Assembly: GCA_963748215.1 (NCBI GenBank)
Contig: CAVVHS010000008.1
Coordinates: 256,001 to 320,000 of the forward strand
Direction of reading: 5' to 3'
Length of the DNA stretch: 64,000 nt
Source of the DNA: an uncultured Gammaproteobacteria bacterium
GTDB taxonomy: Bacteria > Pseudomonadota > Gammaproteobacteria > UBA9214
Within the stretch, counting starts at the first letter, position 1; the number at the start of each line of letters is the position of its first letter. Under the pieces are notes generated by a model. The model had not been told where the DNA came from, did not search any database, and was given only the letters and a program-made list of their open reading frames with translations. Below, piece by piece: positions 35,072 through 59,448 of this stretch. The translations under genes were made by a program, and so were the position numbers.

Positions 35072-35291
35072 TCCCGCGTTCCCACCGCAATAATTCGCGC
35101 AATTCCGCCACGCTTGGTGTACTATCAACCTCGTTGAGGTGAGGCTGCGGCAATCGTCCGTCTCCCGATCCCCGACAAGAGTCTCAGTTGCACGTTATAG
35201 GTTATATCGGAAGTTCCTCTTGACCCTCCTGCACATTTCCTTGCACGTCTTGCGATTGAAAATTTTTATTTTTGTATAGAGGTAAGTTTTA

Positions 35292-35495
35292 ATGGCTACA
35301 GGTACTGTTAAATGGTTCAACGAGTCCAAGGGTTTTGGTTTCATCGCTCCGAGCGATGGCGGTGAGGATGTATTCGTACATTACTCCGCTATTTCCGGCG
35401 ATGGTTTCAAGACACTGGCAGAAGGACAGAGCGTAAATTTCGATGTCGAGCAGGGTCCGAAGGGCCTGCAGGCGAGCAACGTCACGGCCGCCTGA
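35292..35495 (+). CDS. cspA: Cold-shock protein
   Basis: [21 protein letters not shown]. Confidence 0.95.
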
Positions 35496-35517
35496 CCTGC
35501 AATTCAGTCAGCAACAC

Positions 35518-35550
35518 GGGAACCCCGCTTTTCAGCGGGGTTCTTTATTT
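35518..35550 (+). terminator. Intrinsic terminator after cspA
   Basis: GAACCCCGCT/AGCGGGGTTC stem followed by a T-rich run. Confidence 0.8.
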
Positions 35551-37508: not shown

Positions 37509-37652
37509 TCTTTACATCCTTGTAAAGATCCGTCACAGGAAGAATTGATTCCGGCACCGGAATCCATGGCACCTCAGACCGTATCGGCTATGGGCGGGGG
37601 GTGCTTTAGATGGCGCCTCGCGCCAGCGAGGGCAGGATACAGGACGAATAAT

Positions 37653-37698
37653 TGGAGCCGGCGACAGGAGTCGAACCCGCGACATCTTCATTACAAGT
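37653..37698 (-). repeat. att site: 46-bp duplication of the tRNA-Thr 3' end
   Basis: Identical to 46254-46299. Confidence 0.92.
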
Positions 37699-38066
37699 CG
37701 GTATAAGCTAATGATTAGCAATAACTAGCGACAAATAACAACAGTATAATTAGCCAGATAGCCCACTCCATTGGTTGCTGTTTGTTGCTAATTTATGTCG
37801 TTATTTGGCAGCAAGTGCGCCACCAGCGCGCCATGGCAAATGCGGCAGCCACCCTCTATCGGAATTAAACTAGAGCCAGGTTGTCGTCTCTAATTTTACG
37901 GGGATATTTTTCTTCCCCCGTCACTCTTTTCTTTCGCCACAATCAGCCCTGTCTGGTAACGTCATAACTCACAGCCAGGTCCTGCTCGCCGCGCCCATTG
38001 GGAAGCTAGGACATGCGCTGCCACCCTTCGGGTTGGCTTCGCCTTCCTGAATGTCCGAAAGCGGAC

Positions 38067-39654
38067 GATAGTGTTGAAAAACACCTCATCAGGAAGAGCG
38101 CATGAGATAATGTCGCTGCGTTTAAACATATGAGGATTCTCGCCCATGATGGGTCAGTTACCCGCTGCGCAAAATGCCTTGTTTTACGATTTTTGTCTTG
38201 AACGCCGCATTCCCTCCGATCATCTTCTCCGTCAAATAGACCAGTTCCTCGACTTCGACCAGATTCGCCAGCACCTCCAGCCTTTCTATAGCACCACCGG
38301 CCGTCCTTCCATCGATCCGGAGCTCATGATCCGGATGCTGCTGGTGGGCTACTGCTACGGTATCCGCTCAGAGCGCAGGCTCTGCGAAGAAGTGAACTTC
38401 AACCTGGCCTACCGCTGGTTTTGTCGGCTAGGGTTGGAGGCCGATATGCCTGATCATTCGACCTTCTCCAAGAACCGTCATGGACGCTTCCGGGAAGCGG
38501 AGACATTCCGCTATGTCTTTGAACAGGTGCTTAAACGCTGCATGGTGGAAGGCCTGGTCGGGGGTGAGGGTTTTGCCGTGGATGCGAGCATCGTGAAGGC
38601 GGATGCCAGCCGCCAACGTCATCGGGATGACGATGATGATTGGGGTGGTGGCCGTGCGGTGCGTGAGTACCTCGATGCACTGGACGAGTCTGCTTCGCAG
38701 GCCGGTAAGTCAGCACGGAAGATCTCGCCGACGGACCCGGCGGCCAGTTACACAGCAGCACCGGGTGGTCCGGCATTCTATGCCTACTCAAACAATTACC
38801 TGGTTGATACCGGCCATGGGATCATCATGGATGTCGAGTCGACCACGGCCAATCGGACACAGGAGGCTGAATCGACCAAGACCATGGTCGATCGGGTCGT
38901 GAATCGATTCGGGATCAAACCAAAACGCCTGATCGGCGATACTGCTTACGGCACAGCGGCCATGCTCAACTGGATCGTCGAGATAAAGCAGATCGAGCCA
39001 CACACACCCGTGTGGCAGAAGTACGAAGGGGAAGCAGGAATGTTTGGGATGGCTGACTTCACTTGGGATGCCGAGACTGACCGTTACTTGTGTCCGGCAG
39101 GAAAGTTGTTGCAACGCTATCGACGCGACCTAAAAAAAATAAACGCACCGGCATCACAAAGGCCAATACCATTATATACCGTGCCACTGAACACGATTGT
39201 GGAGACTGTGAATACAAATCACGCTGTTGCCCTAAAGTACCTCGGCGCAAAATCACCCGGAGTATTTACGAGTCGTCGCGCGAAGTGGCCCGTGCAACCG
39301 CACAAACACCTGCTTACAAGAAGTCACGCCTTCAACGAAAGAAAGTGGAGATGCTGTTCGCGCACATGAAGCGCATATTAAAGCTGGACCGTCTACGATT
39401 GCGTGGTATGAGCGGTGCGCATGATGAGTTCCTGCTGACAGCAACAGTACAAAACTTACGCAGGATGGCGAAACTGCTCAGTCAACCACCACCAGACCGC
39501 AGGATAGGTGCGCTCGCATGACAGAAAATCAACCGCTTTAACCACCAAAGTCCATCATCTGAACCGGTGATGGCACTTCAAGAAGATCACCCCTTGGCTG
39601 ATGACTTGCCGCGGCTACCGCCATCATCCAAATAGCGACTTTTTCAACACTATC
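38067..39654 (+). mobile_element. IS1182-family insertion sequence
   Basis: Inverted ends GATAGTGTTGAAAAA / TTTTTCAACACTATC; GGAC target duplication (38063-38066, 39655-39658). Confidence 0.88.
38146..39521 (+). CDS. IS1182-family transposase (frameshift in an A-run near 39135)
   Basis: GRPSIDPELM, SERRLCEE, PDHSTFSKNR, VDAS..KADAS, RKKVEMLFAHMK. Confidence 0.9.
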
Positions 39655-40183
39655 GGACAACAGTTGCCATTCCCCTCGACACAGAAAACCCGCTGATGCG
39701 GGATTCCTAATTGGCGACTATCGATTCAAGCCGGATGTTTAGCCGCTTCTTATATCAACGATCACTTATCGGGAAAGAGCGACTACTTCCCGATGTTTTC
39801 AAACTGTCATTCGCTCGGCTTCAATAACATGTTCTCGTTCTGTTGCCAGCACCGCTTCGCCATTACCACGTAGCGTCTCTGCAAAAGTATTCTAATCGCC
39901 CTGTCGACACTGTTTCTCACCAATGCGTCTCACAAATAGTTCTGTCTATATTTGTGAACTGGATCATGCATGAATAATCTGGATTGGTCGATTTAATATA
40001 TGACGTTACGGAAGACGCCGTATTTATAAACCCCACATGTTGGGTGCTGTGTGCATGGCATCCGTCTCCATCGACTGATTAATCGCTAATGCGCTCAGCT
40101 TGGTGGCGGTCGCTACCGGCGGGGGCACGTAAACGGCACAGTCTCCCGGCCATGCCGATTTTATAGTCAACAGAGGAATTACG

Positions 40184-40891
40184 ATGAAAACTATCAGTCA
40201 ACTTCCCATCAGAGCCTTGGTTATAGTCACGATAGCCGCCATTGTTGGGTTGGGTGCCAGCAGTGCATATGCCGCCTCGGTCTACTTCTTGCAGATCGAC
40301 GATATCAAAGGCGAAGCCACTGAACGATCCCATAAGGACTGGATAACGATCAACAGTTTTTCATGGGGAATCAACAACCCCGGATCGGTTGGAACAGGCG
40401 GCGGAGCATCTTCCGGCAAGGCAATACTCTCTCCATTCTCCTGGACACAGTTCCTCGATATGAGTGTACCGCCGATGTTTGTGGGGGTTGCATCCGGGAA
40501 GCATTACTCGAAGGCGACACTGGATGTACAGAATGTAGCAGCGGGGACAGCAGGTGTGTATTTCCAAATGGTATTCGAGGATGTGCTTCTGACCTCACTA
40601 AACATTAGTGGTGCTGGTGATATTCCGGGCGTTTCCGGGGCGCTTGAATATTCGAAGGTCACCATGACCTATCGGCAGCAAAAAGCTGATGGCAGTTTTA
40701 ACACGCCGATCATTGGCGGTTGGGATTTGAAGAAAAACACTGCTGATGCGTTTTTTGGTTCACCGGCAGTACTACAAGGCCTGATCTTGGCAGGACCGAC
40801 GCCGGCCGCAGTACCGGTGCCTGCGGCGATATGGCTCTTCGGCTCCGGCCTGCTGGGACTAGTCGGCATTGCAAGACGCAAGAAAGCCTAA
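40184..40891 (+). CDS. Hcp1-like domain with signal peptide and VPLPA/PEP-CTERM sorting tail
   Basis: FLQIDDIKGE...HKDWITINSFSWG...Y.QQKADGS...GWDLKKN; tail VPVPAAIWLFGSGLLGLVGIARRKKA. Confidence 0.85.
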   Translation: MKTISQLPIRALVIVTIAAIVGLGASSAYAASVYFLQIDDIKGEATERSHKDWITINSFSWGINNPGSVGTGGGASSGKAILSPFSWTQFLDMSVPPMFVGVASGKHYSKATLDVQNVAAGTAGVYFQMVFEDVLLTSLNISGAGDIPGVSGALEYSKVTMTYRQQKADGSFNTPIIGGWDLKKNTADAFFGSPAVLQGLILAGPTPAAVPVPAAIWLFGSGLLGLVGIARRKKA

Positions 40892-40906
40892 CCAGTTACA
40901 AAACAG

Positions 40907-40929
40907 CGGCTCCTTCGGGAGCCGTTTTT
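40907..40929 (+). terminator. Intrinsic terminator
   Basis: CGGCTCC-TTCG-GGAGCCG-TTTTT. Confidence 0.85.
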
Positions 40930-41308
40930 CATTACGCGGTATGTCTGAGTTTGGCCGGCTCCAGTTCTGCGCCACTGCTTATTTGGGAAATCAGTAAGGC
41001 ACAGTAACTTACCCATTCCTGACGATCCATGTCTAAGACCAAACAGTACGCGTCATTAATGTGCTACAGATTCTGTTTTATTGGCCGAATATCATGCCGG
41101 TACTGATGGTATTACCTGACTATAAATAATAACTGCGAGTAACACGGAGCATGACAAGCAGATTATCCGAACCTGCATTAACAATGCCCGACAAGATGAA
41201 CGGCTACTGGAAACAGCAGGTGTCTTACAAAAGACATCCACGGAGCGTTGCAGTCGGCTCTGCGGTTCATAAACGCCAGGACGCCTTTATCAAACAAGGA
41301 GAATTAAC

Positions 41309-41965
41309 ATGAGATTTACCGTGAATAAATCACGACTTATTGGCACAGTATGCGCTACAGCGTTTAGTTTTATCGCTGCGCCAATGGCCGCGAACGCAGC
41401 CATTATTGACTTTGAAGATATCTCCATCCCTGCAAGCAGCATTAGCGGACCATCGCAAACATCCGGAGGTTACTCGTTCGTGAACACCACAACCACGAAT
41501 GACGACATATTAGCTGTGCGGCTATCATCGGCATGCGCAGGTGGATGCGTTGATAACGGCACGCAGTATCTCGCAGTCTTTAATTCAGATCAGACCGGAC
41601 CATTCGAAGTCGAAATGACACGCAATGGTGGTGGGTTATTTGATCTACTTAGCTTCGACTTTGCGTCGTTGTTCAAATTTGTTCCCGCTTCAGGTACCGA
41701 AGTGCTGGACGTTATCGCTACAGCGCCAGGGGGCGTAACCGTTTCGCAGCGTTTCAACTACGACAACATAGGCGACGAATTTCAAATTGCAATGCTTGGT
41801 AGTCAGTTCTCGGGCCTGCAATCCGTCTTGTTTAGCTCCCAGTTTATTTTTCCAGCTTATGACAACATTGAGGTCTCAGCAGTCCCTATCCCCGCAGCCG
41901 TCTGGCTTTTCGGCTCTGGCCTGCTGGGTCTAGTTGGTATAGCAAGGCGCAAGAAAGTAGCTTAG
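41309..41965 (+). CDS. VPLPA/PEP-CTERM surface protein
   Basis: Signal peptide ending ANA, IIDFED start, FDLLSFD, tail VPIPAAVWLFGSGLLGLVGIARRKKVA. Confidence 0.85.
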   Translation: MRFTVNKSRLIGTVCATAFSFIAAPMAANAAIIDFEDISIPASSISGPSQTSGGYSFVNTTTTNDDILAVRLSSACAGGCVDNGTQYLAVFNSDQTGPFEVEMTRNGGGLFDLLSFDFASLFKFVPASGTEVLDVIATAPGGVTVSQRFNYDNIGDEFQIAMLGSQFSGLQSVLFSSQFIFPAYDNIEVSAVPIPAAVWLFGSGLLGLVGIARRKKVA

Positions 41966-41987
41966 TCCTTTCGGCACTCATACTAAG

Positions 41988-42010
41988 CGGCTCCTTGGGG
42001 AGCCGTTTTT
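41988..42010 (+). terminator. Intrinsic terminator
   Basis: CGGCTCC-TTGG-GGAGCCG-TTTTT. Confidence 0.85.
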
Positions 42011-42170
42011 GATTGTGCTGAATGTCCATTTGTGGCTGCCGGTTCCTTTCCTACAGGATTGTCTTATATTAAGATTCCGTTCAACTGGGGTGACGTCGAC
42101 TTCAAGCCGACCCATCTAAGACATTTCGGCAAAATTATCTAAACGGCAGAAAGGCAAGCGGAAAGCGGAC

Positions 42171-42230
42171 ATTGAACGTCCAAGCTCAGCCTCGCCGTAA
42201 AACGGCGTCGGCTGAAACGTCGTGTTAGAT
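42171..42230 (-). mobile_element. attC site (~60 bp)
   Basis: Minus strand ATCTAAC-ACGAC-GTTTCAGCCGACGCCG-TTTTA-CGGCGAGGCTGAGCT-TGGAC-GTTCAAT, 10 nt after the stop of 42241-42750. Confidence 0.8.
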
Positions 42231-42240
42231 TTCATCAGCA

Positions 42241-42750
42241 TCATCTGGGCTTATACCTTTCCTCAATGATCGATTTGCTGGGAGCCTGGATTTTCTCAAG
42301 ATTCTCTAATTGCCTGATAGCATCATCAATCATGGCGTCTTGTTGCTGCAATGCAGCTTGATCGAAACCCCCATTATTTTCCATCTTAATGCGGAACAAT
42401 TGCATTTTAGTCAGAAAATTTCTCAAAATATGATTTGAGGCATCCAGCATGGTTTTGTATATGGCATACTTTTCAGCCTCCTGTGCTTTGACTTCGTTAG
42501 CATGATAATCAGCAAAAATACCAAAAGCCACGAGCAATATCAGAATGGTAGATCTCATCCATAATTCATTAAAAGCAGAAGGTATAACCTCAAATTCCAG
42601 CTCGCCGTACAGAAAATAATGAATTGTGGAATCGAAAAACCAATATGAGAGTGCCAACAAAATAGCAATCTTCAAGAAATAATGCTTCGATTTCACATCA
42701 TTTCCTATCGTGGATTTAGCATTAGAAGACCTAATGTCTTTTTTAAACAC
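42241..42750 (-). CDS. Hypothetical two-TM membrane protein (cassette gene)
   Basis: 169-aa ORF, two hydrophobic segments and a helical tail, followed by attC. Confidence 0.65.
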   Translation of the reverse strand: MFKKDIRSSNAKSTIGNDVKSKHYFLKIAILLALSYWFFDSTIHYFLYGELEFEVIPSAFNELWMRSTILILLVAFGIFADYHANEVKAQEAEKYAIYKTMLDASNHILRNFLTKMQLFRIKMENNGGFDQAALQQQDAMIDDAIRQLENLEKIQAPSKSIIEERYKPR

Positions 42751-42914
42751 GATACTTTGAGACCTATCCCCAAAGGTGCCTTTTAAATTTATCAGGCGAC
42801 TTGTTAATAATAATTATGTCAAAAACAGGTCACTATACATTCTAATCACGCACTCTATGACTATCAGCGGGTCGCGCATGTGCAATTGTGGTCCGGAAAC
42901 CTTTTTCTCTTCAT

Positions 42915-43520
42915 TCAAGCCGACGCAGAATAAGATTGAAAGTCCAGGGCGGTGGGAAGCAATCGTTGCAGTATAGTCGGATCATTCCGGGTTTTGGCGA
43001 TTAGCATGCAACCTTCAAAATAGGCCAGAAATGCTTCGGCCTTCAAATCGACGTCTGTGAGTGCCAGTTCCCCGGCATCGACTGCGTCTTGCAAGGTGCC
43101 ACGGATCAATTGTTTGAAGTCCATGAACAACCCGTTCAGTTTTATGCGAATGGTTTCATCCTGGGTGGAAAGCTCCGAAGCCAGGTTTCCAAAGGGACAA
43201 CCGAGCACGTGGCCGGTCTTTTCGTATATGCTAATCTGGTTGTCAATGATCATGTCAATGAATCTGGACAGACGGGTTAGCGGTGGCAGGCTAGGATCAA
43301 AGGCCTTATCCAAAACAGATTCCTTCATATCGGAATAAAAGGCATCGATAACTGAAAGAGTGAGCTCCTGTTTACTTTTAAAATAATGGTAGAAAGTGCC
43401 CTTTTGAACCTGTGCCTTTTCACAAATTGCAGCCACTCCAGAATCCGCACAGCCACTGGCGTACATCAGATCGCGGGCTGATTCCAGTATGCGCTGATAG
43501 GTGTCCGTTTCCTGCCTCAT
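42915..43520 (-). CDS. TetR-family regulator (NemR/ComR-like)
   Basis: KGTFYHYFKSKQEL HTH, GCPFGNLASELS. Confidence 0.9.
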   Translation of the reverse strand: MRQETDTYQRILESARDLMYASGCADSGVAAICEKAQVQKGTFYHYFKSKQELTLSVIDAFYSDMKESVLDKAFDPSLPPLTRLSRFIDMIIDNQISIYEKTGHVLGCPFGNLASELSTQDETIRIKLNGLFMDFKQLIRGTLQDAVDAGELALTDVDLKAEAFLAYFEGCMLIAKTRNDPTILQRLLPTALDFQSYSASA

Positions 43521-43554
43521 GCGGCAATAGTAGTTGACCGGTCGGTCAAGTCAA
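43521..43554 (-). promoter_or_regulatory. TetR promoter with palindromic operator, probably leaderless
   Basis: TTGACT-N16-TACTAT-N6-ATG; palindrome TTGACC-GGTC-GGTCAA at 43534-43549. Confidence 0.7.
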
Positions 43555-43705
43555 GCCCGTGCCAATTTTAGCTTCAAAAAATTATTGACAGGATGATTAT
43601 CAGGGCAATTGCCCTCGTGAGGCAGGCATTGAAACGAAGCGCTTATGGTCCGTTAAATGCTGTGCCCCGTTCGTAGTTGATTCGGAAATTTGGCCAGTCA
43701 TCACA

Positions 43706-43777
43706 ATCCCAAACCCCACTACAGTCTGGCTCTTCGGCTCCAGCCTGCTGGGATTGGCTGGTGTATCCCTGGCTTAA
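43706..43777 (+). pseudogene. Orphan, decayed VPLPA-CTERM tail
   Basis: IPNPTTVWLFGSSLLGLAGVSLA* with no upstream ORF, followed by a degenerate copy of the same terminator. Confidence 0.7.
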
Positions 43778-44205
43778 GAAAGCCGCTATATGTCTGAATA
43801 GCGGTCCTTAGGGGCCGTATTGAATTTGTGCTAATGGCAGGAGAGTGGCAGATCCCGGTCCTACACGAGGCGCTTATATAAGATTTCGCCAACCGGCAGG
43901 AGTCGACCCTAAGCGGAAGTACAGGAATTTTGCTTAAAGGTCAGTAACGTACTGAATCCTGACATCCAGTTCTGGTGGCCGACATCGTTCGAACGGCTGA
44001 ACTTATATGTTATGTTTGTTTTTCTTGGCGAGCCATTCAAAGGAATGCTAATAGTTATAAGAAGAAAATACTATTTTCCTTATTGACTGGATTGTTGAAA
44101 ATCTCACCTGTTGGGAGCGCCGCTATCAGGTCAGTAATGTTCTGAAAAGAATTACAGGCCGCTGCCAACCAGTGCATTACCACAATCCATTTAGGAGTTA
44201 GTCTT

Positions 44206-45399
44206 ATGCCTCTGGTTTATATGGCTGACATGTTGCATCACGCGTACGAGAACAACTATGCCGTAGGTGCTTTCGATGTAGTGAGCCTGGATTTTATTTC
44301 AGGGGTTATGGCAGCCGCCGAGGAAAAACACGCGCCGGTTATCATCAGCTTGGCTGAATCTCACTTTGAATACTTCGATTTTGAACTACTCATGGCGTCG
44401 GTGGTAAAGGCAGCGGAACGCTCAACTATACCTGTGGCGATTCATCTGGATCACGGCGAATCCCTTGAGTCAGCCGTGTGTGCGATTAACCTTGGCTGCA
44501 CCGGCATCATGGTCGATGCGTCAAATCTGCCTCTAGATAAAAATATCGCTCTAACACGGACCGTAGTTGACATGGCCCATGCCTGCGGCATCCCTGTTGA
44601 GGGGGAGCTGGGCTATGTACCTGGAGTGGAAGGCGAGGATGCTGAACGTCACCCCGGAGATGTTCAATATACGACTGTCGACGAGGCAAGACGCTATATC
44701 GATGAGACCGGCGCAGATTTCCTGGCTGTCTCCATAGGTACAGTTCACGGTCGAATGAAAGGTGAGCCGAAGCTTGATATCGAGCGTCTCGCGCAGATCA
44801 ACCAGGCCCTGAAACTGCCACTCGTGATCCATGGAGGAACCGGGTTGCGTGATGACCAGTACAGGAGTCTCGTCGATAACGGTGTTACCAAAATCAATTA
44901 CTACACGGCTCTGGCCGATGTGGCAGGACAATGTATAAAGGGCAACGTAGAAACAGAAACGAATTGCAACTATACAAGCTACATAGACGGCATAGCTGGG
45001 GCAGTACAGCAGGAAGCAGGACGTTGCATTGACATCTGGGGTTGCTCAGGACGTGCCAGCTCAATGCTCGCGAGCTGTCGCCCGTGGCTTCCTGTCGAGC
45101 ATGTGATATTTTTCAACACTGGAAAGCTTGATGCAGCTGCAACAGAAGATATGATGTCCGAGGGTAGACGGGTCCTTGGCAGTATACCGGGTGTACAACG
45201 GGTATTTACCGGTCACGCTGTCACCGAGGATAGCCCTTATAGGCATTGTTGGATGGTGCAATTCTCTGCCCGTCCTGTTATCGATAGCTATCGCGAGCAC
45301 CCAGCGCACCAACACTTTGCTGACAGTCGCTTTCGTCCCCACGCTGGTGATCGCCTGAGTATCGATTTCGAAGCGTGCAGCACGAAAGAAATAACATAA
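44206..45399 (+). CDS. Class II fructose/ketose-bisphosphate aldolase with C-terminal Dabb-like domain
   Basis: YAVGAF, IHLDHG, VEGELG, LAVSIGTVHG, LVIHGGTG, KINYYT; C-terminal YREHPAH..F. Confidence 0.88.
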   Translation: MPLVYMADMLHHAYENNYAVGAFDVVSLDFISGVMAAAEEKHAPVIISLAESHFEYFDFELLMASVVKAAERSTIPVAIHLDHGESLESAVCAINLGCTGIMVDASNLPLDKNIALTRTVVDMAHACGIPVEGELGYVPGVEGEDAERHPGDVQYTTVDEARRYIDETGADFLAVSIGTVHGRMKGEPKLDIERLAQINQALKLPLVIHGGTGLRDDQYRSLVDNGVTKINYYTALADVAGQCIKGNVETETNCNYTSYIDGIAGAVQQEAGRCIDIWGCSGRASSMLASCRPWLPVEHVIFFNTGKLDAAATEDMMSEGRRVLGSIPGVQRVFTGHAVTEDSPYRHCWMVQFSARPVIDSYREHPAHQHFADSRFRPHAGDRLSIDFEACSTKEIT

Positions 45400-45616
45400 C
45401 CAGAGTTCAAGTATTGAACACATATTTTTTGCTTTAACAATGAAGGATAATTATTTGTCTGTTAGACAAATGCAATGGCAGGCCGGGAATGGCAATTTTT
45501 GCTGCGTTCCAGTCGTTCGTCAGTTCACCGGGAACGGCAAGTTCTGGCCGATAGTCGCTGATTAGATCACCCGCATCAGCGGGTTTTGTGCGTTCAGGGA
45601 ACGGCAACTGTTGTCC

Positions 45617-45774
45617 GATAGTGTTGAAAAACTCTGCTACTAGAAATCGACCGCGCACGAGAGTGAGATGCTTTGTCATTTTGCAAAATATTTCGGATTT
45701 CAGGAAACCCTCATGCACGATTTCTACATGAACATTATGACCTCAGTAGATCATTAGAGTTTTTCAACACAATA
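45617..45774. mobile_element. IS1182-type MITE (158 bp)
   Basis: Ends GATAGTGTTGAAAAACTC / GAGTTTTTCAACACAATA; GTCC target duplication. Confidence 0.8.
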
Positions 45775-46253
45775 GTCCGCTTTCGGACATTCACCAACCC
45801 GAAGGGTTGTAGCGCATGTCCTTGCTTCCCAATGGACTTGCCACAGGACCTGGCTGTGAGTTTTTGAAGTTATCAGACGGGGCTGATTGTGGTGTAGGAA
45901 AAGGCTGGCAGAAATATCCCCGTAAAATTGAAGACGACCACTACCGCTATGACTAATCAGTAAAATAAAAGGTGGGCTCGACATTTCATGGCGTTGCGAC
46001 AATTAATCTTCGGGTAAATGGGAAGCGGTCTACTGCCATTGCCCTAAGCAGGAATCCCCCCTACCCCCTTCGTCAAGCAAGCGTGAGCGAGGGGAAAAAC
46101 CCTGCATACTAGACATCTGATGAAGGCGCCCCTCTTGGCATGGGACTTTTGTGAATATACGAGGGGAAATTACATCGAGACACAGAAATGCTAGCCCATA
46201 TGCTAGCCAGAATCGATTGCACAGTATGATTTCGTTATAACTATATGATTCAG

Positions 46254-46329
46254 TGGAGCCGGCGACAGGAGTCGAACCCGCGACATCTTCATTACAAGTG
46301 AAGCGCTCTACCAACTGAGCTACGCCGGC
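46254..46329 (-). tRNA. tRNA-Thr (TGT)
   Basis: GCCGGCGTAGCTCAGTTGGTAGAGCG...CTTGTAA...GGTTCGACTCC...CCA, 76-nt cloverleaf. Confidence 0.97.
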
Positions 46330-46389
46330 ATCTTGGCCATCAGGACAAGGCGCCCTATTCTATTGAATTGCCGGTTTACCTGCAATTAA

Positions 46390-47061
46390 TCAGCCTGTCA
46401 CAGGCAGGCAAGCGCGCAGCTGCAGATCCGGGTTCTCTTCGAGCACATCGTCCAGCACCGGCGCGGCCGCGGCCCGACCCTGGAATTCCAGCCAGTAGGC
46501 GTCCAGCGTGATATAGCGCGTCTCGAGGATTGCATTCAGCCCCAGCTGCCGCACCTGTGACAGGCGGATCTCGGCGCGCGAGATGTCCTTGAATGTGCCA
46601 AGGGACATGAAATTATCCTTGCCGATGTAATATTCGTGGTCATTCCGCTCATCCAGCATTTTCGCGATCTGCAGGGCCTCCCCGCGTTCCATCGCCGGCA
46701 GATAAATCCAGTAGCCACTCTCCTTCCTGTCCTCGGCGATGCGCTGTCTTGGCTCCAGACCGAGTTTGCCCGCCACTGCGTGCAGCGCCTCCTCCGCGTA
46801 GAACGGCCCCAGCACCTGGCATGCAGCCGGCATGCCCGCGCCCGGTGGCTGCGACAGGGTCAGTGTGTCGATGCCTGACATTTCCTGTTCCGGCGCCGTC
46901 GCGGACTGTTGTTTCAGTTCCTGCAGGGTCACGAGCGGCTTGGCGGTGGCCGGCAGCGGCGGCAATTCGCGCGCCGTTTCGCCCGCCGTCCCGCTACTGA
47001 ACAGGTTCCAGCCGAAGTAGGCCAGGTTGGCGACAAGCAAGAAGTAGACAAGGTGGCGCAT
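46390..47061 (-). CDS. SPOR-domain protein, copy A
   Basis: LLVANLAYFGW anchor, C..LGPF, YWIYLP, SLGTF; paralog of 59577-60242. Confidence 0.8.
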   Translation of the reverse strand: MRHLVYFLLVANLAYFGWNLFSSGTAGETARELPPLPATAKPLVTLQELKQQSATAPEQEMSGIDTLTLSQPPGAGMPAACQVLGPFYAEEALHAVAGKLGLEPRQRIAEDRKESGYWIYLPAMERGEALQIAKMLDERNDHEYYIGKDNFMSLGTFKDISRAEIRLSQVRQLGLNAILETRYITLDAYWLEFQGRAAAAPVLDDVLEENPDLQLRACLPVTG

Positions 47062-48995
47062 CAGTGTTCTCCGGCGAGTATGGCGATTCCTTTCAGGACC
47101 ATGTCTGCATCGTATCTGGCGACAAGCCCGAGCAGCGGCACCAGCCGCTGCGCATCGCCGCCGGTAATCACGACCGCGGGCTGCAAGCCCGTACTGGCGG
47201 CCATGTCAGTTGCGATGCGCTCGATTGCCGCTGCCGCTGCATACAGGCTGCCGCGGCTGATCGCCCCGGAAGTCGTGGTCGCCAGTGATACAGGCGCCGG
47301 CTCGTCGTGCGGAAGCGGCAGGTCTGCGGTATGTGCACATAACGCCTGCTGCATCATCGTCACGCCGGCGAGGATCAGGCCACCGCGGTGCACGCCGCCC
47401 GCATCGACCAGGTCCAGGGTGATGGCGGTACCGCAATCCACCACGCACACCACATCACCGGTAGCCTGCCAGGCTGCGATCATCGCCGCCCAGCGATCGG
47501 CGCCGAGCAGTGCGGGCTGCGCATAGGCATTGGTCACCCCGGCGGCCTGCCGGCCGGCACGGATGAAGTGCGGACGCACCTGCCAGGACCGCTCGACCCA
47601 GGCGCCCGGCCAGTGCGTCACCGGCAACATTGGACACCAGGACACGCCCGGGCGCCGCCAGCCTCCCCCAGGCCTGCTCCAGTTGCCTGACCAGGTCGCT
47701 GCCACGATGCACAAATTGTCCACGCCTTTCGAGTTGCTGTCCGCTGGCCAGTGCCCAGTTGACGGATGTGTTGCCAATACGACATCACCCCGTCTTGAGT
47801 AGCAGTCATGTTTAGAGTCCGGATGCTACTGTAGCCGATTTCCTGGCCATTGTCTGGTGTAGGCGGCAGATGTCAGTCCCCCCAACGCGTTCTTCGCGTC
47901 TCTCCTCGTTGTATTCACACCGCCAGGCTTCGATGATGATCTGGCCATGAGCCAGGTTCAGGAACCAGTGCTCATTCAGGCATTCGTCGCGCAGCCGCCC
48001 GTTGAATGACTCGATGTAGGCATTCTGGTTCGGCTTGCCCGGCTCGATCAGAGTGAGCTTCACCTGGCGGGTATGCGCCCAGGTCAGCATGGCGCGTCCG
48101 CAGAACTCCTTGCCATTGTCGGTGCGGATCACCCGCGGCAGGCTGCGGCTGACAGACAGTCCGTCGAGAATCCGCGTGAGCATCAGATCACCGATGGCCC
48201 GTTCCGGCACGACCGCGACCGATTCGTGCGTGGCATCATCGACGATCGTCAGGCACTTGATGAACCGCCCCTCGGCGCTGCGATCGAACGCGAAGTCCAT
48301 GGACCAGACCTCGTTGGCGGCGTCGGGACGCACCAGGGGCTGGCGCTCGCCACCGGCACCTTCTTGCGCTTGAGCCGTTGCACTTGCAGACGGGCTTCCG
48401 TGTAGAGCCGCTCGACACGCTTGTGGTTGACCACCAGGCCCCGCTGGCGCAGCTTGAGGTAAATCATGCCGTCTCCGTAGCGCCGGTGCCGGTGGGCGAG
48501 CGCCACGATCGTCTCCCGCAGGACTGCGTTGCGGTCCGGGGCCGGCTGGTAGCGCAAACTGCTCGCGCTCATGCCGCGCATGACGCTCTGAGAGGCCCCG
48601 AGCCATCATCCTCCGCACCACCTCGCGACGGGCCAGCGCGGTCACCACTTTTTTCGCAGCACCTCGCGGGTCGCCTCCTGTTCCAGTATCGCCTCGGCCA
48701 GCAGCTTCTTGAGACGGGCATTCTCCGCTTCCAGAGCCTTCAGCCGTTTGGCGTCCGACATGCCCATGCCACCGTACTTGCCGCGCCAGAGGTAGTAACT
48801 GCCCTCCGAGAACCCGTGCGACCGACACAGGTCCTTGACGGATACCCCGGTGTCCGCTTCGCGCAAAAACCCGATGATCTGCTCGTCTGAATACCGATTC
48901 TTCATGTCCAATCTCCTTCCGGTTATGGGATTGGACTCTAAATCATCATGCTACTCAAATAGGGGGTGACGTCGAATATCCACCAGCAGGTTCAT
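47061..48995 (-). pseudogene. coaX: Type III pantothenate kinase copy A, interrupted by IS3 and frameshifted
   Basis: MNLLVDI at 48995, IS insertion, then GNTSVNWA...LGADRW...VVDCGTAIT...TGGDA. Confidence 0.85.
47780..48974 (-). mobile_element. IS3-family (IS407-group-like) element, degenerate orfB
   Basis: ~40-bp inverted ends, AATA target duplication, orfA MKNRYSDEQII (48642-48905), A6G slippery site, orfB WSMDF/TDNGKEF/IESFNGRLRDE. Confidence 0.9.
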
Positions 48996-49107
48996 GTCGC
49001 CATTCGCACGCTGACCTCGCCGGATGTGAAACGCCTGCGCCCGCCATCCGTATCCACCAGCAGCGCACCGCCCGCATCGGTGCCGCGGGCGGTACCGCGC
49101 ACGACCG
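48992..49107 (-). pseudogene. birA: 3' fragment of birA (copy A)
   Basis: [33 protein letters not shown] matches the C-terminus of 60982-61962. Confidence 0.85.
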
Positions 49108-49239
49108 CACTCCGCTATTTCCGGAGACGGTTTCAAGACACTGGCAGAAGGACAGAGTGTAAAATTCGATGTCGAGCAGGGTCCGAAGGGCCTGCAGGCG
49201 AGCAACGTCACGGTCGCCTTACCCGTAATTCAGCAGTAA
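49108..49239 (+). pseudogene. cspA: 3' fragment of cspA (stop lost), with terminator copy at 49244-49275
   Basis: Near-identical to 35383-35495 plus the downstream hairpin. Confidence 0.88.
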
Positions 49240-49786
49240 CAGGGGAACCCCGCTTGACAGCGGGGTTCTTTTTTTGGGCAGTGCAGAACCCTGCAGGTCA
49301 GGCGGACAGACCCGGCGCAGTGTTCAGGCGGCAACCATGAAACGCAATCCCCGTGCCTGCCCCTGCATTACGGGCCGGTCAACTGAGTCAGGGCCCGCAT
49401 CGTTTGACAATAGAATTCTCTGCAGTCCCATACTCCCTTTTGCATCTTCTGCCACGCTGCCTGGCAACTCAGAGGTGACTCATGAAACTCACGCAGCGCA
49501 CAATCGGCGCGGCTGTCTATGCCGGTAACAATAATGCACTGCACGTCCTGTGGGATGACGTCAACTCGGGATTAGGCTGTAGGATACATCTGAGCAGGAA
49601 AAATTCCTTCGCATAACACCGTCAAGCCTTACATGCGGGGTGAGGCGGTCATGCTGCCGGCAGCACGGGACCTGAGCCACAGGCGACCGGGTAAAAGCAG
49701 CCGAGCTGGCCGAGGCGGCGGCCCGGGAAACACTAACCTGATAGCGATTGCCGGGGAATCGCCGGGCACAAAACCTGACTTAAAGT

Positions 49787-49936
49787 CCGTTGGAGTCGAT
49801 CGTCAGGGAGATCCGGTGCCGTGCCCGCGTTATTGATGCATTTACGGCCAGGCAATCGGCTGTGATGCTGTGGTCTGCATGGGTGCGAGACATGGCCTCG
49901 ACACACCGGCGGACGCGGTTTTTTCTGCACCTGTAA
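49787..49936 (+). pseudogene. Decayed IS256-family transposase C-terminal remnant
   Basis: PLESIVREIRCRARVIDAF...QSAVML..A.VR resembles the IS256 C-terminal motif; frameshifted. Confidence 0.5.
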
Positions 49937-50185
49937 CCGTTGTATAAACGGGCATTGGATCCAGCCATACAGACTCCCGCGTTCCGCGATGGTCCGGCGC
50001 ACTTCTGACCGATACACATATTGGCCTGCGCCTCTTGCTTCCGTATACTGAGCGCCATGGCAAGTGCCGTCGTGCGCGACGCTAAAGCCCTACAACCGGC
50101 AGAAAAGCAGTGACCGTATGCATACTGAATCAGGTCCTGTGCCGTGTGGCGCCGGCATGTGCCCGGTCCGATGCAGGTCGATAAT

Positions 50186-52456
50186 ATGCGAAGCGATGAG
50201 AAACCCAGAAACGGCCTAGCAGGACTCAAACACTGGCGCTATGATCTGGGCGCCGGACTGCAGGTCGCGCTGGTATCCATGCCGCTCTCGCTGGGTATCG
50301 CGGTGGCCTCAGGTGCGCCACCCATCACCGGCATCATCTCCGCCATCATTGCCGGCCTGATCTTTCCATTTCTCGGTGGTGCGTATGTCACCATTAGCGG
50401 CCCTGCGGCTGGCCTTGCGCCGGCACTCCTCGCCGGCATGCTGGTGCTGGGCAATGGCGACCTTGCCGCCGGCTATCCGCTGCTACTGGTCGCCATCTGC
50501 CTCACCGGCGCGGTGCAGATCGTTTTGAGCCTGATCAATGCGGGCCGTTTCGCCATCTTTCTGCCGGTGACCGTGGTGGAGGCGATGCTCGCCGCGATCG
50601 GCATCATGATCATCGTCAAGCAAATCCCGCCCCTGCTCGGTGATCTTGCACCACTGAGCAAGGATATGTTCACCGCCATTCTCAAGCTGCCTGAAAGCAT
50701 GGCACGAATCGAGTGGCCGGTGTTTCTAATTGGTGCCTTCTGCTTGTTCCTGATGTTCTATCTAAACCACACTCGCCTGGCCTGGGCGAAGCGGCTGCCA
50801 CCTGCGCTCGCCGTAGCCGTGATCGGCATCCTGCTCGGTTATGTCTTCAACCTGGACGCCAGGCATCTGATCAGCATGCCTGACGACATTCTCAAAGGCG
50901 GTATAACCCTGCCTGCCTTCGACGATATCTGGCAAAGCCCGGATCTCTGGGGCAGTGTCATCATCGTCGTTATCACGCTAACGCTTATTGACGGCATCGA
51001 ATCGCTGGCTACCATTGCTGCGGTCGACAAGATCGACCCTTTCCAGCGCAAATCGCAGGCCAACACCACTTTGCGCGCGATGGGTGTGTCGAATATGCTG
51101 TCCAGCATCTTCGGAGGCCTGACGATCATCCCCGGCGGTGTCAAGAGCCGCGTCAACATCGATGCCGGTGGCCGTACTCTGTGGGCAAATTTCTATAACG
51201 CTTTCTTTCTGGTCATCTTCCTGTTCCTGGCCAAAGACCTGATCAGCCGTATACCGCTGGCAGCCATCGGCGCCATTCTGGTATATGTCGGTTGGCGGCT
51301 GTGCGAATACCGTGTGTTCCAGAAGACTTACGCCATCGGCCGCGACCAGATCGTAATCTTTGTGATCACCGTTGCCGCGATTCTCGCGACTGATCTTCTA
51401 TTCGGCATCCTCATCGGAATCGCCGCCGAGATCACCATGCTCGCATATCTGCTGAGCCCCTCGTTCCGCACCGTGCTCACCGGGCGGCTCACATACAGTC
51501 AGGCCACTACCTTGGTGTTGCGTAATTTGATTAGTCTGTTCCGCAGCCCTGTCATCAAGGTGAAGCTTGAAGAGCTCAGCGGCCAGCCGCATTACAATAT
51601 TACCCTGGGATCGGTGGTGTGCTTCAACCTGCTGCCACTCGACAGGCTTCTGCAGTCGTTGCCACAGGGCGCGGCGATAACGCTCGCAGCCAGCGAATCC
51701 GGACATCTCATCGATCACACCGCCATGGAGTATCTGCACAACTTTCAGGAAGAGTGTTTGCTCGAAGGCCGGGAATTCCGTCTCACGGGCATGGAGAACT
51801 ATTACCAGTTTACCCTGCACACGTTGTCCGCACGCATGCACGACGCCAAACTGGTGCGGGAAAGGGCGCGCATGTCTGACCGCTCACGGATGCTGGAAGG
51901 AATCTCTGCCCACCACGGCCTTGATTTTCACGATGAGGTCGTCGGCACCTTGAACCTGCACGATTTTGTCTATCTGCGCCGTGGTGACATGCGTCAGGAA
52001 TGCAATGTCATGACCGGCCTGTATGCCAGCTGTCATGTGAAGCTGTTCGATTACAGCCATACCGCCGCGCCAGATTATTACGCCGAGCATCGGCATACGC
52101 TCATTATCGTAAGGCCGCAAGACGAACTGGTGGAGATGCCTGATCTGGTGGTCACGCCGGGTCATTATCTGCAGCGCTATCTGGTTGAGTTCGAAGAGAT
52201 CGACACACCAGCGCTCACCGCCGCCAGTCACGAACACCGCTGGTACCGGCGCCCGCAGGGTATCGACCCGGAAGGTTTGATCAAGAAGCTGCTGATACTG
52301 CTGGAGAACTATCCAGGCATCTACATCGAGATTCGCGACAATGCACTGCTTGCCTTTCATCCCGGCCGCGAACTGGAGAGCGAGGACGGCATCGCAAGCC
52401 TGCTTGGCATCGCCAAACTGCTATTTGCGACTCGCGACGGCGTTGTACCGACCTAG
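50186..52456 (+). CDS. SulP/SLC26 anion transporter with STAS-like region and extra C-terminal domain
   Basis: AG..VALV.MPLSLGIA.ASG, SGPAAGL, IESL, IPLAA. Confidence 0.88.
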   Translation: MRSDEKPRNGLAGLKHWRYDLGAGLQVALVSMPLSLGIAVASGAPPITGIISAIIAGLIFPFLGGAYVTISGPAAGLAPALLAGMLVLGNGDLAAGYPLLLVAICLTGAVQIVLSLINAGRFAIFLPVTVVEAMLAAIGIMIIVKQIPPLLGDLAPLSKDMFTAILKLPESMARIEWPVFLIGAFCLFLMFYLNHTRLAWAKRLPPALAVAVIGILLGYVFNLDARHLISMPDDILKGGITLPAFDDIWQSPDLWGSVIIVVITLTLIDGIESLATIAAVDKIDPFQRKSQANTTLRAMGVSNMLSSIFGGLTIIPGGVKSRVNIDAGGRTLWANFYNAFFLVIFLFLAKDLISRIPLAAIGAILVYVGWRLCEYRVFQKTYAIGRDQIVIFVITVAAILATDLLFGILIGIAAEITMLAYLLSPSFRTVLTGRLTYSQATTLVLRNLISLFRSPVIKVKLEELSGQPHYNITLGSVVCFNLLPLDRLLQSLPQGAAITLAASESGHLIDHTAMEYLHNFQEECLLEGREFRLTGMENYYQFTLHTLSARMHDAKLVRERARMSDRSRMLEGISAHHGLDFHDEVVGTLNLHDFVYLRRGDMRQECNVMTGLYASCHVKLFDYSHTAAPDYYAEHRHTLIIVRPQDELVEMPDLVVTPGHYLQRYLVEFEEIDTPALTAASHEHRWYRRPQGIDPEGLIKKLLILLENYPGIYIEIRDNALLAFHPGRELESEDGIASLLGIAKLLFATRDGVVPT

Positions 52457-53214
52457 GCGTATGCGAATCGACGGCAGTGCGAGCGAGGATATGCAGAGTT
52501 ACAGCGTCAAACCAGCGTATGACAGAGGAAACTGCTCGCGGAGACGCGCAACATTATCACTGACGACATGATTGCGTATGACGGAAATACGCGATGCGTG
52601 CTGACCGGCGCGCGTGCAGAGACCCGGGCAATCGTCAGGACACCGATTTTTCTTCGATTCTCGACCGAATGCATGGCGCCTGAACGTCCTTGCTTCGGAT
52701 CACGCCAGTCAATGTCGGGCGGCCTGCCACCGGCCAGCATCACTGTCACTTTACGCGCAAGCTCCGGATATTTGTTTCGATTCCGCGCAACGCTTCACTG
52801 ATGGGCTCATGCAGATCGATCAACATCGACAGCAAGAGATCACGCACCATGCACGCGCAGTAGATTCATAATAAGCGCCCGTTTCCGCCCTCACGAGGCG
52901 TGGATGGATTCCAGGCGGTACGCTGCAGCCGACCCATTGCACATCCTCATTTTTGCGCAAGACAGGCAGGCAGCAGATGAGCGTCACACATTCAGTACAC
53001 GGCCAATTGACGAATGCAGGCCCGAGAGGTCGTTGGCGAACGGATAGTCCGGATGATTCCGGCTGGTACTGGCTTTCAGACAGCGCAACCAAGCACGACA
53101 CATAGCGAGGAGGAAGTACTCGTGCATGGCCATGCCAGGAATCTTGAGACAATGTCATCCGCACCCGGGGACAGGTGTCGCCAAAGATGGAACCAACTGT
53201 TCTCTGTGCACGGT

Positions 53215-54587
<1,373 letters not shown>

Positions 54588-54591
<4 letters not shown>

Positions 54592-56066
54592 GCTTCCTCA
54601 TGTTCGCGTACCGGCACTTCCTGCAATGGAAGCCAGATCGTGAATCGGGCGCCACCTTCGGGCCGGTTGTCAACCGCGATACAGCCCTGGTGTTCATTGA
54701 TGATCTCTTCCACCAGATACAGGCCCAGTCCAGTGCCTTCGCCGCCGGACTGGGTGGTGAAGAATGGATCGAAAAGTTTCGGCAGGTTGTCCGGCGGGAT
54801 GCCGGGGCCGTCGTCGTCGACCTGCATCAGCAGGATATGCGTGAACTGGGCGATGCCTGTAGTGTCACCGGCAAGATGGTTGGTATTGACCGGCTTCGAT
54901 TCCTTCCAGGTGGTCTCCCTGCCGGTGATCCAGACATTTTTCGCGCCGGCATGCGCGGAATTCCTTATCAGGTTGATGATCACCTGCTGCATGCGGTCGC
55001 GGTCCACCATCAGCATACTCTCGGAGATATCCTCGATGTGCAGGAAGATGTCATGCGGCAGCAGGCGGTGAATCAGCAGCACCGCCGACCGCACCAGGCT
55101 CGCGGCCCCCAGCAGCTGCATGTCGTGCGTGGGCTGGCGCACGGTATCGAGCAGGCGCCGGACGATGCGGCGCGCGCGTTCCGTCTCGCCGTCAATGTGC
55201 GACAGCCACTGCTTGCACAGGTTCTCGCGCGCGCGGCCGTCTTCCTCCAGCAATAACTGCACCGATGTGGATATGTTCGACAGCGGGTTATTCAGCTCAT
55301 GGGCCACGCCGGACACCAGCACGCCAAGCGCGGCGGCCCGCTCGTGGCGACGCAGCAGGTTCTGCTGGTTGCGCAGCTGTTCGAGCATGCTATTGAAGTG
55401 AAACACGAAGGAGGCGATTTCCTTGTCGCTGGACGGCAGTGCCAGTGTCTGCACCCGGCCTTCGGCAAGCTGGTCGAGCTGGTTTTCGAGCTGGGCCAGC
55501 GGTCGCACGACACGCCGTACCATGAACATGGCACTGATCAGCCCGATCATGATCACGGTGACGGAGGCAACCATCAGCGTCCGCGCCGCCACTCGCGTGG
55601 TATCGGTGAGGATGTCGCGCTGGCGCTGATTGAGACCCTGGGTCAGCAGCGAGAGCTGGTGCCCTGTGGCGCGGATATTTTCCTGGCTGGCGGTACGCTC
55701 AGCCCTGGATAGCAAGTTATAGGCCTCAAGCTGATCGCTGTATTTCTGCAGCGCCGAGCCTATCCGGCGCAGTTCCTCCTGTCCGGCAATGACCGCGAAG
55801 GCGCGCTCGCCGGTGGCCAGGGCGTTCTTTGCGACATCCAGCTGCATCTTGAGCTGGTTCAGGTGGTGCGGGTCCTGGTAGAGAAACAGGTTCTTCTCGA
55901 CGCGGCGAATCTCCTGGGTGGCCAAGTACAGGTCGCTGACCGCCACGCCCTCTGTGATGTGAGTCTGCAGGTAGTGCAGGTCGGCAATGACCACGGCGAC
56001 GAAAATCACCAAGGCAGCCTTAGAGAGCCCGTAGGAGGCCAGGATTTTGCTGCGCAGGCTGGTCAT
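54588..56066 (-). CDS. Membrane sensor histidine kinase (HAMP, HisKA, HATPase)
   Basis: Two TMs, AHELNNPL, DDGPGI, FDPFFTT, GTGLGL. Confidence 0.93.
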
Positions 56067-56098
56067 GGCAGGGTGACCCTCCCCGGCTGGTTTCAAGG

Positions 56099-56237
56099 TG
56101 TTGCATATTACAACACCGTTGCAGTGATGCGATACGGCTTTTGGTGCTGGTGTTACATTCTGAAACAGCCGGCCGCAATGGTTAAAGTTTAACTACATGA
56201 ATTCATTATATTTATAAAGTTGGCACGCTACCTGCAT
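56099..56237 (+). promoter_or_regulatory. Sigma-54 promoter with upstream enhancer palindromes
   Basis: TGGCAC-GCTAC-CTGCA at 56221-56236; TGTTGCATATTACAACA (56099) and TGTTACATTCTGAAACA (56151); AT-rich tract in between. Confidence 0.75.
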
Positions 56238-56269
56238 TGTATCCAGCATTCTTGATTGAGGAGCCGACG

Positions 56270-56866
56270 ATGAAAAAACTGACCGAAAACCTGAAACAGA
56301 TGCTGGATGCCCTGGCCCATGCACACGCCGGTGAATACCTGACCCAGCGCGAGAAAACGCGGATCCTGGCACAGACGTCTGGCGAAATCGCACAAGTGCC
56401 GGCAGTAGCCGAACCGGTCGCGAAGCGCAAGGGCAGCACCGCGCGTCGCATTGCGCTCTACCTGGGCAACGAGCTGCCGCCGGAGGTCATGGACTATGTC
56501 ATCCAGACCTGCGCCCGCGTACAGCACGAACTGACGGTATTGACCTTCGAAACCGAGAACTGCGCGCGCGCCCTGCTCGAGCCGCACCGGAAAGCCCTCG
56601 AGGCCGCCGGCGTCGACATGAAGCTCGAGGTACTCAGCAGCGAACAGCCCATCGCCGGCCTGAAACGCTACCTGCGCAGCCATCCGGAAGTTGCCTTCCT
56701 GGCCTGCAAGGACACCGGCTACCTGGGTCGCAGCTACCTGAGTGGTACCAGGGATCAGAACTCGCTACCGGTTCCGGTCGTGGTGGTGACGACGCAGGCC
56801 CAGGCCAACCACGAGGCGGTTCACCCCGCCACCGATCAGAACCGTTCCAGCAGCGTCGTCGCCTGA
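56270..56866 (+). CDS. Conserved hypothetical protein (possibly USP-like)
   Basis: GAGGAG RBS, host-like codon usage, C-terminal LPVPVVVV; first gene after the sigma-54 promoter. Confidence 0.7.
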   Translation: MKKLTENLKQMLDALAHAHAGEYLTQREKTRILAQTSGEIAQVPAVAEPVAKRKGSTARRIALYLGNELPPEVMDYVIQTCARVQHELTVLTFETENCARALLEPHRKALEAAGVDMKLEVLSSEQPIAGLKRYLRSHPEVAFLACKDTGYLGRSYLSGTRDQNSLPVPVVVVTTQAQANHEAVHPATDQNRSSSVVA

Positions 56867-56975
56867 CCCCCCAGAACAGATCCCCGTACAGATCTGTTCG
56901 CAACGAGGCCGGCACAGCGGCAGTAAGCTGCTGCTTGCCGGCCTTTTCGGGTGTTAATTTGTTTATAATGCAGGT

Positions 56976-59042: not shown

Positions 59043-59448
59043 GGTAAGGGGCGGCACCCGCGTTCAGAAAACAGGCAAGACGATTGCTTCTTCATCATCC
59101 CGTGTCGTGGATGCCCGTTTCTGCTGTACCTCATGGTTTCCGGGAACGTCCGGAGCCGGCCGCCGGTTCAGGTGATCGACGCAATACAGGCGTGAAACAT
59201 TCCACCGGTATTTGTAGCCCCGTCAGCTGCGGGGCAACCGCGTCTTGCTCAGCCCCGAGGTGGTACCGACGTATCCTAGCGGTCGTGAAGGGACTGCCGT
59301 GTCAATCCAATCCCGTCCTGCGAACGTGAGTGTCAGGCAGAGGATCGGCGCCGGGAAGCGCAAAAGAGAGACGACCACCTGGCCAGTGCTACAGACCCAG
59401 CACGGGGGATGCCAACTTCGAGCGAAAATTATGTCTTATTGATTAACA

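Follow-up and report, generated by a model that had tools for sequence, protein, structure and literature searches.

Inverted composite modules within an integrase-less tRNA-Thr island of an uncultured gammaproteobacterium and their interruption at one base by an IS1182-family element and a MITE

In a stretch of 64,000 nucleotides from an uncultured Gammaproteobacteria bacterium of the lineage UBA9214 (GenBank assembly GCA_963748215.1, contig CAVVHS010000008.1, positions 256,001 to 320,000 of the forward strand), here termed the window, a group of genes lies between two divergent repeats in inverted orientation, and each repeat is interrupted at the same base, the left one by an insertion sequence (IS) of the IS1182 family and the right one by a 158-bp MITE (a miniature inverted-repeat transposable element). 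A preliminary description of this DNA took the repeats to be the ends of an unnamed element and the IS to be specific for a site within it; the locus raises the question of what has moved here, and of why two insertions should have struck one and the same base. The explanation that best accounts for the whole, with a probability of roughly 0.6, is that the genes belong to a decayed island in a tRNA-Thr gene, that the repeats are composite modules lying within this island, and that the insertions reflect a target choice centred on a palindrome.

Boundaries of the tRNA-Thr island

The segment from 37699 to 46253 (8,555 bp) is a horizontally acquired island that lacks an integrase, lies in the 3' part of a tRNA-Thr(UGU) gene and is bounded by 46-bp direct repeats. 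The intact gene, which occupies 46254..46329 on the minus strand, is recognized by ARAGORN and by Rfam (RF00005, 70.6 bits) and is the sole tRNA gene in the window, throughout which Rfam, at its gathering score, reports the tRNA, a cspA leader and nothing else. The 3' 46 nt of this gene (46254-46299) constitute the proximal att-like direct repeat; the distal one is a displaced 3' part of the tRNA gene at 37653..37698, also on the minus strand, which extends from the CCA end to the anticodon loop and is identical to its counterpart over these 46 nt (repeat family D3, 53 nt at 94%). The guanine and cytosine content is 42-53% inside the island vs 58-67% in the flanks, and the inverted repeats start 181 bp inside the left boundary and 312 bp inside the right one.

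The presence or absence of this segment as a unit can be followed in related genomes. In G044, the left flank (96% identity) passes straight into an intact tRNA-Thr gene, which is followed by the right flank (92%), with all 8,555 bp absent, including the left arm (37699..37879) and the right arm (45942..46253) that lie outside the inverted repeats; similarly, one contig from the public sequencing run X5 joins 37652 to 46254, corresponding to the empty form. In G045, three contigs have in common a 127-bp end composed of flank and part of the tRNA, the identity of the three overlaps being judged from mismatch counts: one contig stops there, one (C159) represents the empty site, and one (C7) enters the left end of the island, where it is 99% identical over 137 bp (37699-37835) before running into another insertion sequence. 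The latter occupies 478-2780 of locus L051 (G045:C7), at the position equivalent to window 37835 and just outside the expected start of the left repeat, and is taken by us, from its gene layout (istA of 512 aa, istB of 255 aa), to belong to the IS21 family. The right arm has short blocks in common with the tRNA-Thr flank of G021; candidate matches to the left arm in G023 and G051 were set aside, being weak, not confirmed by BLASTN and located near other tRNAs. The cargo genes of the island were found in neither G044 nor G045.

Among the submitted open reading frames (ORFs) of the island of at least 70 aa, no recombinase or relaxase family was found in Pfam or NCBIfam, and the five matches to PF00589 in the genome all lie on contigs C2, C5 and C6, with none on the contig of the window. 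To judge from this anatomy, the island would have entered by site-specific recombination of the tyrosine-integrase type and would by now be decayed, resembling a cis-mobilizable element (CIME), which is defined in PMC5704250 as a tRNA-gene island without an integrase. The proposal that the inverted repeats are the ends of an unnamed element does not agree with these boundaries: the unit that is present or absent ends at the 46-bp tRNA repeats and not at the outer tips of the inverted repeats, there is no duplication around the tips, the similarity between left and right stops at them, and the repeat is unpaired elsewhere.

The inverted modules and their relatives

The repeats themselves, put at ~270 bp in the preliminary description, are confirmed as a divergent inverted pair. 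The repeat finder returned the colinear inverted pairs I1-I6 and I8, whose left members span 37880-38082 and 39637-39723 and whose right members span 45549-45634 and 45759-45941; with both insertions cut out by coordinates in a script before alignment, the left and right copies show 199/253 identities (79%, 24 gap columns, E 2e-39) in inverted orientation by BLASTN and 81.6% identity across 250 aligned columns by MAFFT. Each ~253-bp repeat is a composite, non-coding and sharply bounded module, in which a low-copy outer part of ~185 bp is joined to a hairpin mini-element (~66 bp) that is itself dispersed; further genomes of the genus also have the module, there as single copies. Beyond the tips, the inverted repeat has no significant extension, the alignment of the spacers scoring 20 vs 17 +/- 2.2 for shuffled sequences.

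On the left, the outer module (37880..38066, plus strand) ends in a half-site of the IS target (CTGAATGTC, 7 nt, GGAC), and the inner part (39655..39723, plus strand) comprises the second copy of GGAC and the mini-element, whose hairpin is terminator-like on the minus strand. On the right, where both parts are in minus orientation, the inner part (45549..45616; pairs I1, I4 and D8) comprises the mini-element and GTCC and follows a second, truncated copy of the mini-element end (45530-45548), and the outer module (45775..45941) is homologous in its outer part to sequence beside the tRNA-Thr gene of G021. In both copies, the outer part ends in a palindromic half-site that abuts the mini-element, and an uninterrupted homologue in G006 (L005 4800-5060) represents the insertion-free state of the site. 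A structured RNA gene was considered and rejected, since consensus folding of three copies on both strands gave just three local hairpins with single-sequence z-scores of -2.7 to 0, and Rfam, at E up to 1, returned no match for the three loci with the uninterrupted G006 copies and the G043 copy. A conserved small protein was likewise rejected, because the indels between copies are not multiples of three.

The pair could be read as a substrate for inversion of the cargo, either by a recombination switch or by occasional RecA-mediated flipping, in that the repeats are inverted and, with the insertions removed, ~5.8 kb apart. However, they are only ~80% identical, their longest perfect stretch in common is 19 nt (pair I8), the island has no invertase gene, and the contigs of four runs contain no strand-changing joints, a weak test in that contigs drop rare forms such as an inversion or a circle; an inverting cargo is regarded as highly improbable.

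The two parts of the module differ in their distribution. When the G006 copy was used as the query, matches were found in 25 of the 37 genomes of the genus, nearly all of them over the inner 40-70 bp alone, and the outer module was found only in the present genome (G000, twice), G006 (twice, one copy being truncated), G021 and G043; two degenerate patterns from the middle of the repeat gave 0 matches each in metagenome contigs. Among the matches listed, 13 of 15 are copies of the ~66-bp unit with its terminator-like hairpin, distributed over nine genomes. GGCC stands at a fixed distance upstream in 11 of these 13 copies and, by our own reading, the unit is followed in eight of them by a tetranucleotide that matches GGCC at three or more positions. 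The present genome contains three copies (39659-39723 and 45549-45612 in the window, and G000:C8:81999-82071), in which weak terminal inverted repeats (7 of 10) can be discerned, the first six bases matching the start of the terminal repeat of the IS. On our reading, this unit is a mini-element, or a mosaic module, placed in the middle of a palindromic motif; possibly it represents a very small MITE with the same target as the IS.

Full-length identity is 81.6% between the left and right copies vs 66-73% between these and the copies of other genomes, so that the two are mutual nearest relatives. Because the divergence of 18-21% between them is far greater than the 4% divergence of the flank from the island-free relative, the inverted pair would have been present already in the donor element and would pre-date the present integration.

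A transposon-like reading of the pair deserves to be weighed against this background. The repeats would then be the functional ends of a non-autonomous element, whose 8-kb tip-to-tip segment is moved by a transposase acting in trans, and the tRNA repeats would derive from an older island into which the element jumped or with which it fused. All of the cargo does lie between the repeats, as the preliminary description had stated; the tip motif is conserved in the left copy, the right copy, a relic at 59367 and G006; by our own reading, the homology of the left copy with its G006 counterpart breaks off abruptly at the tip; and the inner boundary coincides with a mini-element terminus that begins like the terminal repeat of the IS. 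Nevertheless, as read from the sequence, no direct repeat around the outer tips is common to 37870-37879 and 45942-45951, no candidate transposase for such ends was identified, and the polymorphism ends at the tRNA repeats, as set out above. The IS-free repeat was, moreover, compared with other genomes, as the preliminary description had suggested: the outer part in G021 is separated by 149 bp from a tRNA-Thr gene and has the orientation of the right copy, with short blocks of similarity that run past the tip toward the tRNA, and no paired ends around other cargo were found, neither the 8.5-kb contig of G006 nor the G021 contig having more than one copy. The two 231-aa ORFs adjoining the G006 copies proved unrelated to each other. 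On balance, transposon ends are an unlikely explanation of the pair.

The proximity of the module to tRNA-Thr genes suggests a further possibility, in which the repeats are the accessory arms of a recombination site, namely a ~1-kb palindromic attP to which an integrase or directionality factor provided in trans would bind. In an excised circle, the repeats would face each other across ~540 bp holding the 46-bp core, with the tips 181 and 312 bp from that core in inverted orientation; the divergence of the copies, being older than the acquisition of the island, implies that the pair has travelled with the element; and the tip or outer module lies 66-312 bp from the 3' end of tRNA-Thr at three loci, namely the right copy, G021 and the relic at 59367. 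The relic, a recurrence of the outer tip which the preliminary description had correctly placed beside a decayed tRNA at ~59368, occupies 59367..59384 on the plus strand, is flanked by GGCC, lies 66 bp from the decayed tRNA-Thr (~59450-59540) and is conserved in G045:C159 (79% over 59314-59421). A 16-of-17 match to the tip is expected ~4e-4 times in the window by our own arithmetic; a shorter 13-mer of the tip with one mismatch has three other matches in the genome, which is about chance level, and a 17-mer from the tip region matched at least 120 loci among genome contigs, the 80 listed all being in unrelated taxa, at about the chance rate.

Against such a role, no cognate recombinase was found, the G006 copies lie away from any tRNA, at least on the 8.5-kb contig, nothing in the module apart from the local hairpins is markedly conserved, and the island contig of G045 has the left arm, then the IS21-family element and the contig end, with the repeat found nowhere in the G045 assembly. 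Arms of this kind are unlikely on the present evidence. The same low expectation applies to the broader proposal that this is an integrase-less, tRNA-Thr-specific mobilisable island of an undescribed kind, its attP centred in a ~1-kb imperfect palindrome and its 250-bp modules serving as recognition arms for a recombinase or directionality factor acting in trans; if it were true, the relics at 59367 and in G021 would mark older tRNA-Thr integrations of the same system. Any role of the inverted pair in mobility is hypothetical.

Target choice of the IS1182-family element and its MITEs

The element in the left repeat (38067..39654, plus strand) is 1588 bp long, has perfect 15-bp terminal inverted repeats and is flanked by GGAC at 38063-38066 and 39655-39658. 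It was previously described as a full IS1182, which is accurate for the element as such, this being of full length, and not for its transposase, which in this assembly is split into two overlapping frames, 38146-39369 and 39090-39521, instead of a single intact one. The first frame scores 295.7 bits with NF033551 against a curated cut-off of 270, the second matches positions 378-488 of the model, and DUF772, DDE_Tnp_1 and DDE_Tnp_1_6 are the Pfam matches; together with the terminal inverted repeats and the 4-bp target duplication, the transposase score places the element in the family. The genome has a single copy. Within the overlap of the two frames, the run of A at 39132-39139 numbers eight (A8) in this assembly and in run X2, as opposed to seven (A7) in contigs of runs X1 and X5, and a second one-base difference is found at 38171 in runs X1 and X2; these differences may represent decay, slippage, or homopolymer or sequencing error.

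The MITE in the right repeat (45617..45774, 158 bp) is small and non-coding, carries the terminal repeats of the IS (pair I11, 18-nt arms at 94%) and is flanked by GTCC at 45613-45616 and 45775-45778, that is, by the same kind of target duplication. GTCC is the same base of the same site as the GGAC of the IS, on the other strand, and the earlier claim that both insertions duplicated the same GGAC is thereby upheld. Three copies of the MITE occur in the genome, the other two being on contigs C9 (97%) and C7 (92-93%), and related elements of 166-219 bp lie at eight other loci in other genomes of the genus. A fourth MITE, of 219 bp, which lies outside the window (G000:C8:75106-75324), shares these terminal repeats, is flanked by a duplication of GGCC and is situated at a distance of 7 kb from the third mini-element copy. 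Both junctions of the IS, both junctions of the MITE and the right copy through to the tRNA are covered by contigs of public runs from two studies, one of which runs may be the source sample; because these contigs cover all four junctions, the structure of repeats and insertions is not peculiar to the present assembly.

The coincidence of the two insertions can be understood from a survey of 13 elements for which both ends were available, namely the IS, the MITE of the window, the MITEs on C9 and C7, and nine related elements 166-219 bp long, of which eight belong to other genomes of the genus and one to another part of the window's contig. Eight of the 13 have a perfect 4-bp duplication, ten are flanked by GGCC on one side or both, and in 11, as read from the rows, the flank contains the motif CTG(A/T)A.(T/G)TC, followed by 7 nt and then the tetranucleotide. 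A pattern search for the terminal repeat gave matches in 21 of the 37 genomes, vs three in total for a reversed control pattern; GGCC precedes 15 of the 38 single-end matches, and several of the others have the look of chance matches within coding sequence. Both repeat copies carry the half-site with GGAC instead of GGCC, directly adjoining the end of the mini-element.

Mechanistically, the transposase of the IS1182-family element, and with it the MITEs that it presumably mobilises, would choose a GGCC-like tetranucleotide at the centre of a palindromic motif, and this tetranucleotide, 7 nt from the CTG(A/T)A.(T/G)TC arm, would become the 4-bp target duplication. Since both repeat copies have kept the half-site with GGAC, two independent insertions at one base are to be attributed to this site and not to a specificity for the 253-bp repeat. 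The earlier suggestion that the IS targets the repeat element specifically has to be abandoned, for the IS and the MITEs with the same ends insert in a recurrent palindromic motif at many unrelated places; tabulation of the targets, which the preliminary description had proposed, bears out a site preference with a GGCC-like centre and severs its tie to the 253-bp element.

Several observations weigh against the explanation favoured here. First, no integrase, excisionase or circular junction was seen, and the contigs with the empty site may stem from other strains rather than from excision. Second, chance alone does not explain an arrangement in which the two copies bracket all of the cargo and are each other's closest relatives. 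Third, unoccupied full palindromes are not enriched in the genome, with 8 vs 18 for the reversed control pattern; because of this, the target is not a classical high-copy repetitive extragenic palindromic (REP) sequence and is not called a REP family here, and assignment to REPs or bacterial interspersed mosaic elements (BIMEs), as high-copy extragenic palindromes, was rejected on this count and on the three copies of the mini-element in the genome. Fourth, insertion in the manner of IS1272, as described in PMC4923244 and PMC5678879, deletes part of a hairpin and leaves no target duplication, whereas the duplications here are clean and of 4 bp.

Cargo, surroundings and comparison with known systems

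The cargo region (39724..45548), whose gene content was assessed with Pfam and NCBIfam, begins with a PEP-CTERM protein at 40184-40891 in which a type VI secretion Hcp domain (PF05638, E 1.9e-27) is combined, unusually, with a C-terminal PEP-CTERM sorting motif. It is followed by a second PEP-CTERM protein (41309-41965), an ORF of 169 aa that matches no family (42241-42750, minus strand), a TetR regulator (42915-43520, minus strand), the remnant of a PEP-CTERM tail (~43704-43765) and, at 44206-45399, a fusion of a class II fructose-bisphosphate aldolase with a Dabb (stress-responsive alpha/beta barrel) domain at the C terminus, which remains below all NCBIfam aldolase equivalog cut-offs. A module composed of a PEP-CTERM tail, a terminator hairpin and a palindromic motif of the IS-target type is repeated three times in this region, at 40808-40945, 41879-42026 and 43704-43818 (D1, D2, D4), the third copy being a remnant without a gene body; the C9 copy of the MITE has also targeted a module of this kind.

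To the right of the island, a segment comprising tRNA-Thr, a SPOR-like gene and coaX is present twice within 46254-63131. The first copy (46254-47779), with 92% identity to G044, is interrupted by an IS3-family element whose transposase lies at 47812-48828, and continues beyond it over 133 bp (48976-49108); the second comprises the decayed tRNA, a gene that belongs to no recognized family, coaX and birA, and is colinear with both G044 and G021, its identity to G044 being only 78-80%. Two SulP transporters and a sigma-54 two-component pair lie between the copies, and a shorter version of this arrangement is found on G045:C159. Moreover, the ~160 bp at 49109-49275 are 90-94% identical to the counterparts, in relatives, of the region of the cspA leader in the window (Rfam, 35170-35548), and would seem to duplicate part of that leader.

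Taken together, the locus is for the most part ordinary and is made up of known kinds of elements, namely a decayed tRNA island and an IS1182-family IS and MITEs with a hairpin-centred target choice, and what is unusual about it is of modest extent, namely that the 4-bp duplication is clean and falls at a GGCC-like centre, and that composite modules stand inverted close to either end of the island. A puzzling structure is in this manner resolved into known processes, namely decay of an island at a tRNA hot spot and the target choice of an IS1182-family element, and the inverted modules near both att sites leave a small question on how such islands are built. As a by-product, a fairly sharp target motif with a 4-bp duplication is obtained for one IS1182-family lineage and its MITEs; the target choice of this element can be read directly from natural insertions, and the motif is testable as a predictable insertion site.

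Among known systems, the island most readily invites comparison with CIMEs as presented in PMC5704250, with which it shares direct repeats that stem from a tRNA gene's 3' part, foreign DNA of atypical composition, the lack of integration and transfer genes, and a precise presence or absence between close relatives. Unlike these, it carries ~250-bp inverted modules near both ends, which are not in the description of CIMEs given there, and an origin from an integrative and conjugative element (ICE) or an integrative and mobilizable element (IME) is putative here. In a similar way, the 158-bp element corresponds to a MITE in being non-coding, in having terminal repeats and a 4-bp target duplication as in the IS, and in occurring in three copies; it differs in that it is not an internal-deletion derivative of the present IS, with which it has just ~17 bp per end in common. 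The 66-bp mini-element departs further from MITEs in its weak terminal repeats, 7 of 10 by our own reading.

Hot spots for insertion sequences have been described in REPs (PMC1525189), IS1397 and palindromic units reportedly being a further case, and the present target resembles REPs and BIMEs in consisting of extragenic palindromic modules that lie downstream of genes, are mosaic and attract particular insertion sequences. The copy number here is, in contrast, low and the unoccupied motif not enriched, and the insertion sequences named in that text are different ones (e.g., ISPsy8, ISPa11, ISPpu9 and ISPpu10); a literature search on IS1182 together with REP found nothing relevant. Closer parallels are IS1272 and TnSha1, members of the IS1182 family which, as described in PMC4923244 and PMC5678879, insert into hairpins and have repeatedly and independently hit the same hairpin; they share with the present elements the transposase family, the palindromic or hairpin targets and the repeated independent hits. 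IS1272 is described there as structure-specific and not sequence-specific, whereas the present elements have a flanking sequence motif and 4-bp duplications at a GGCC-like centre, which sets this lineage apart from the published IS1272 mode.

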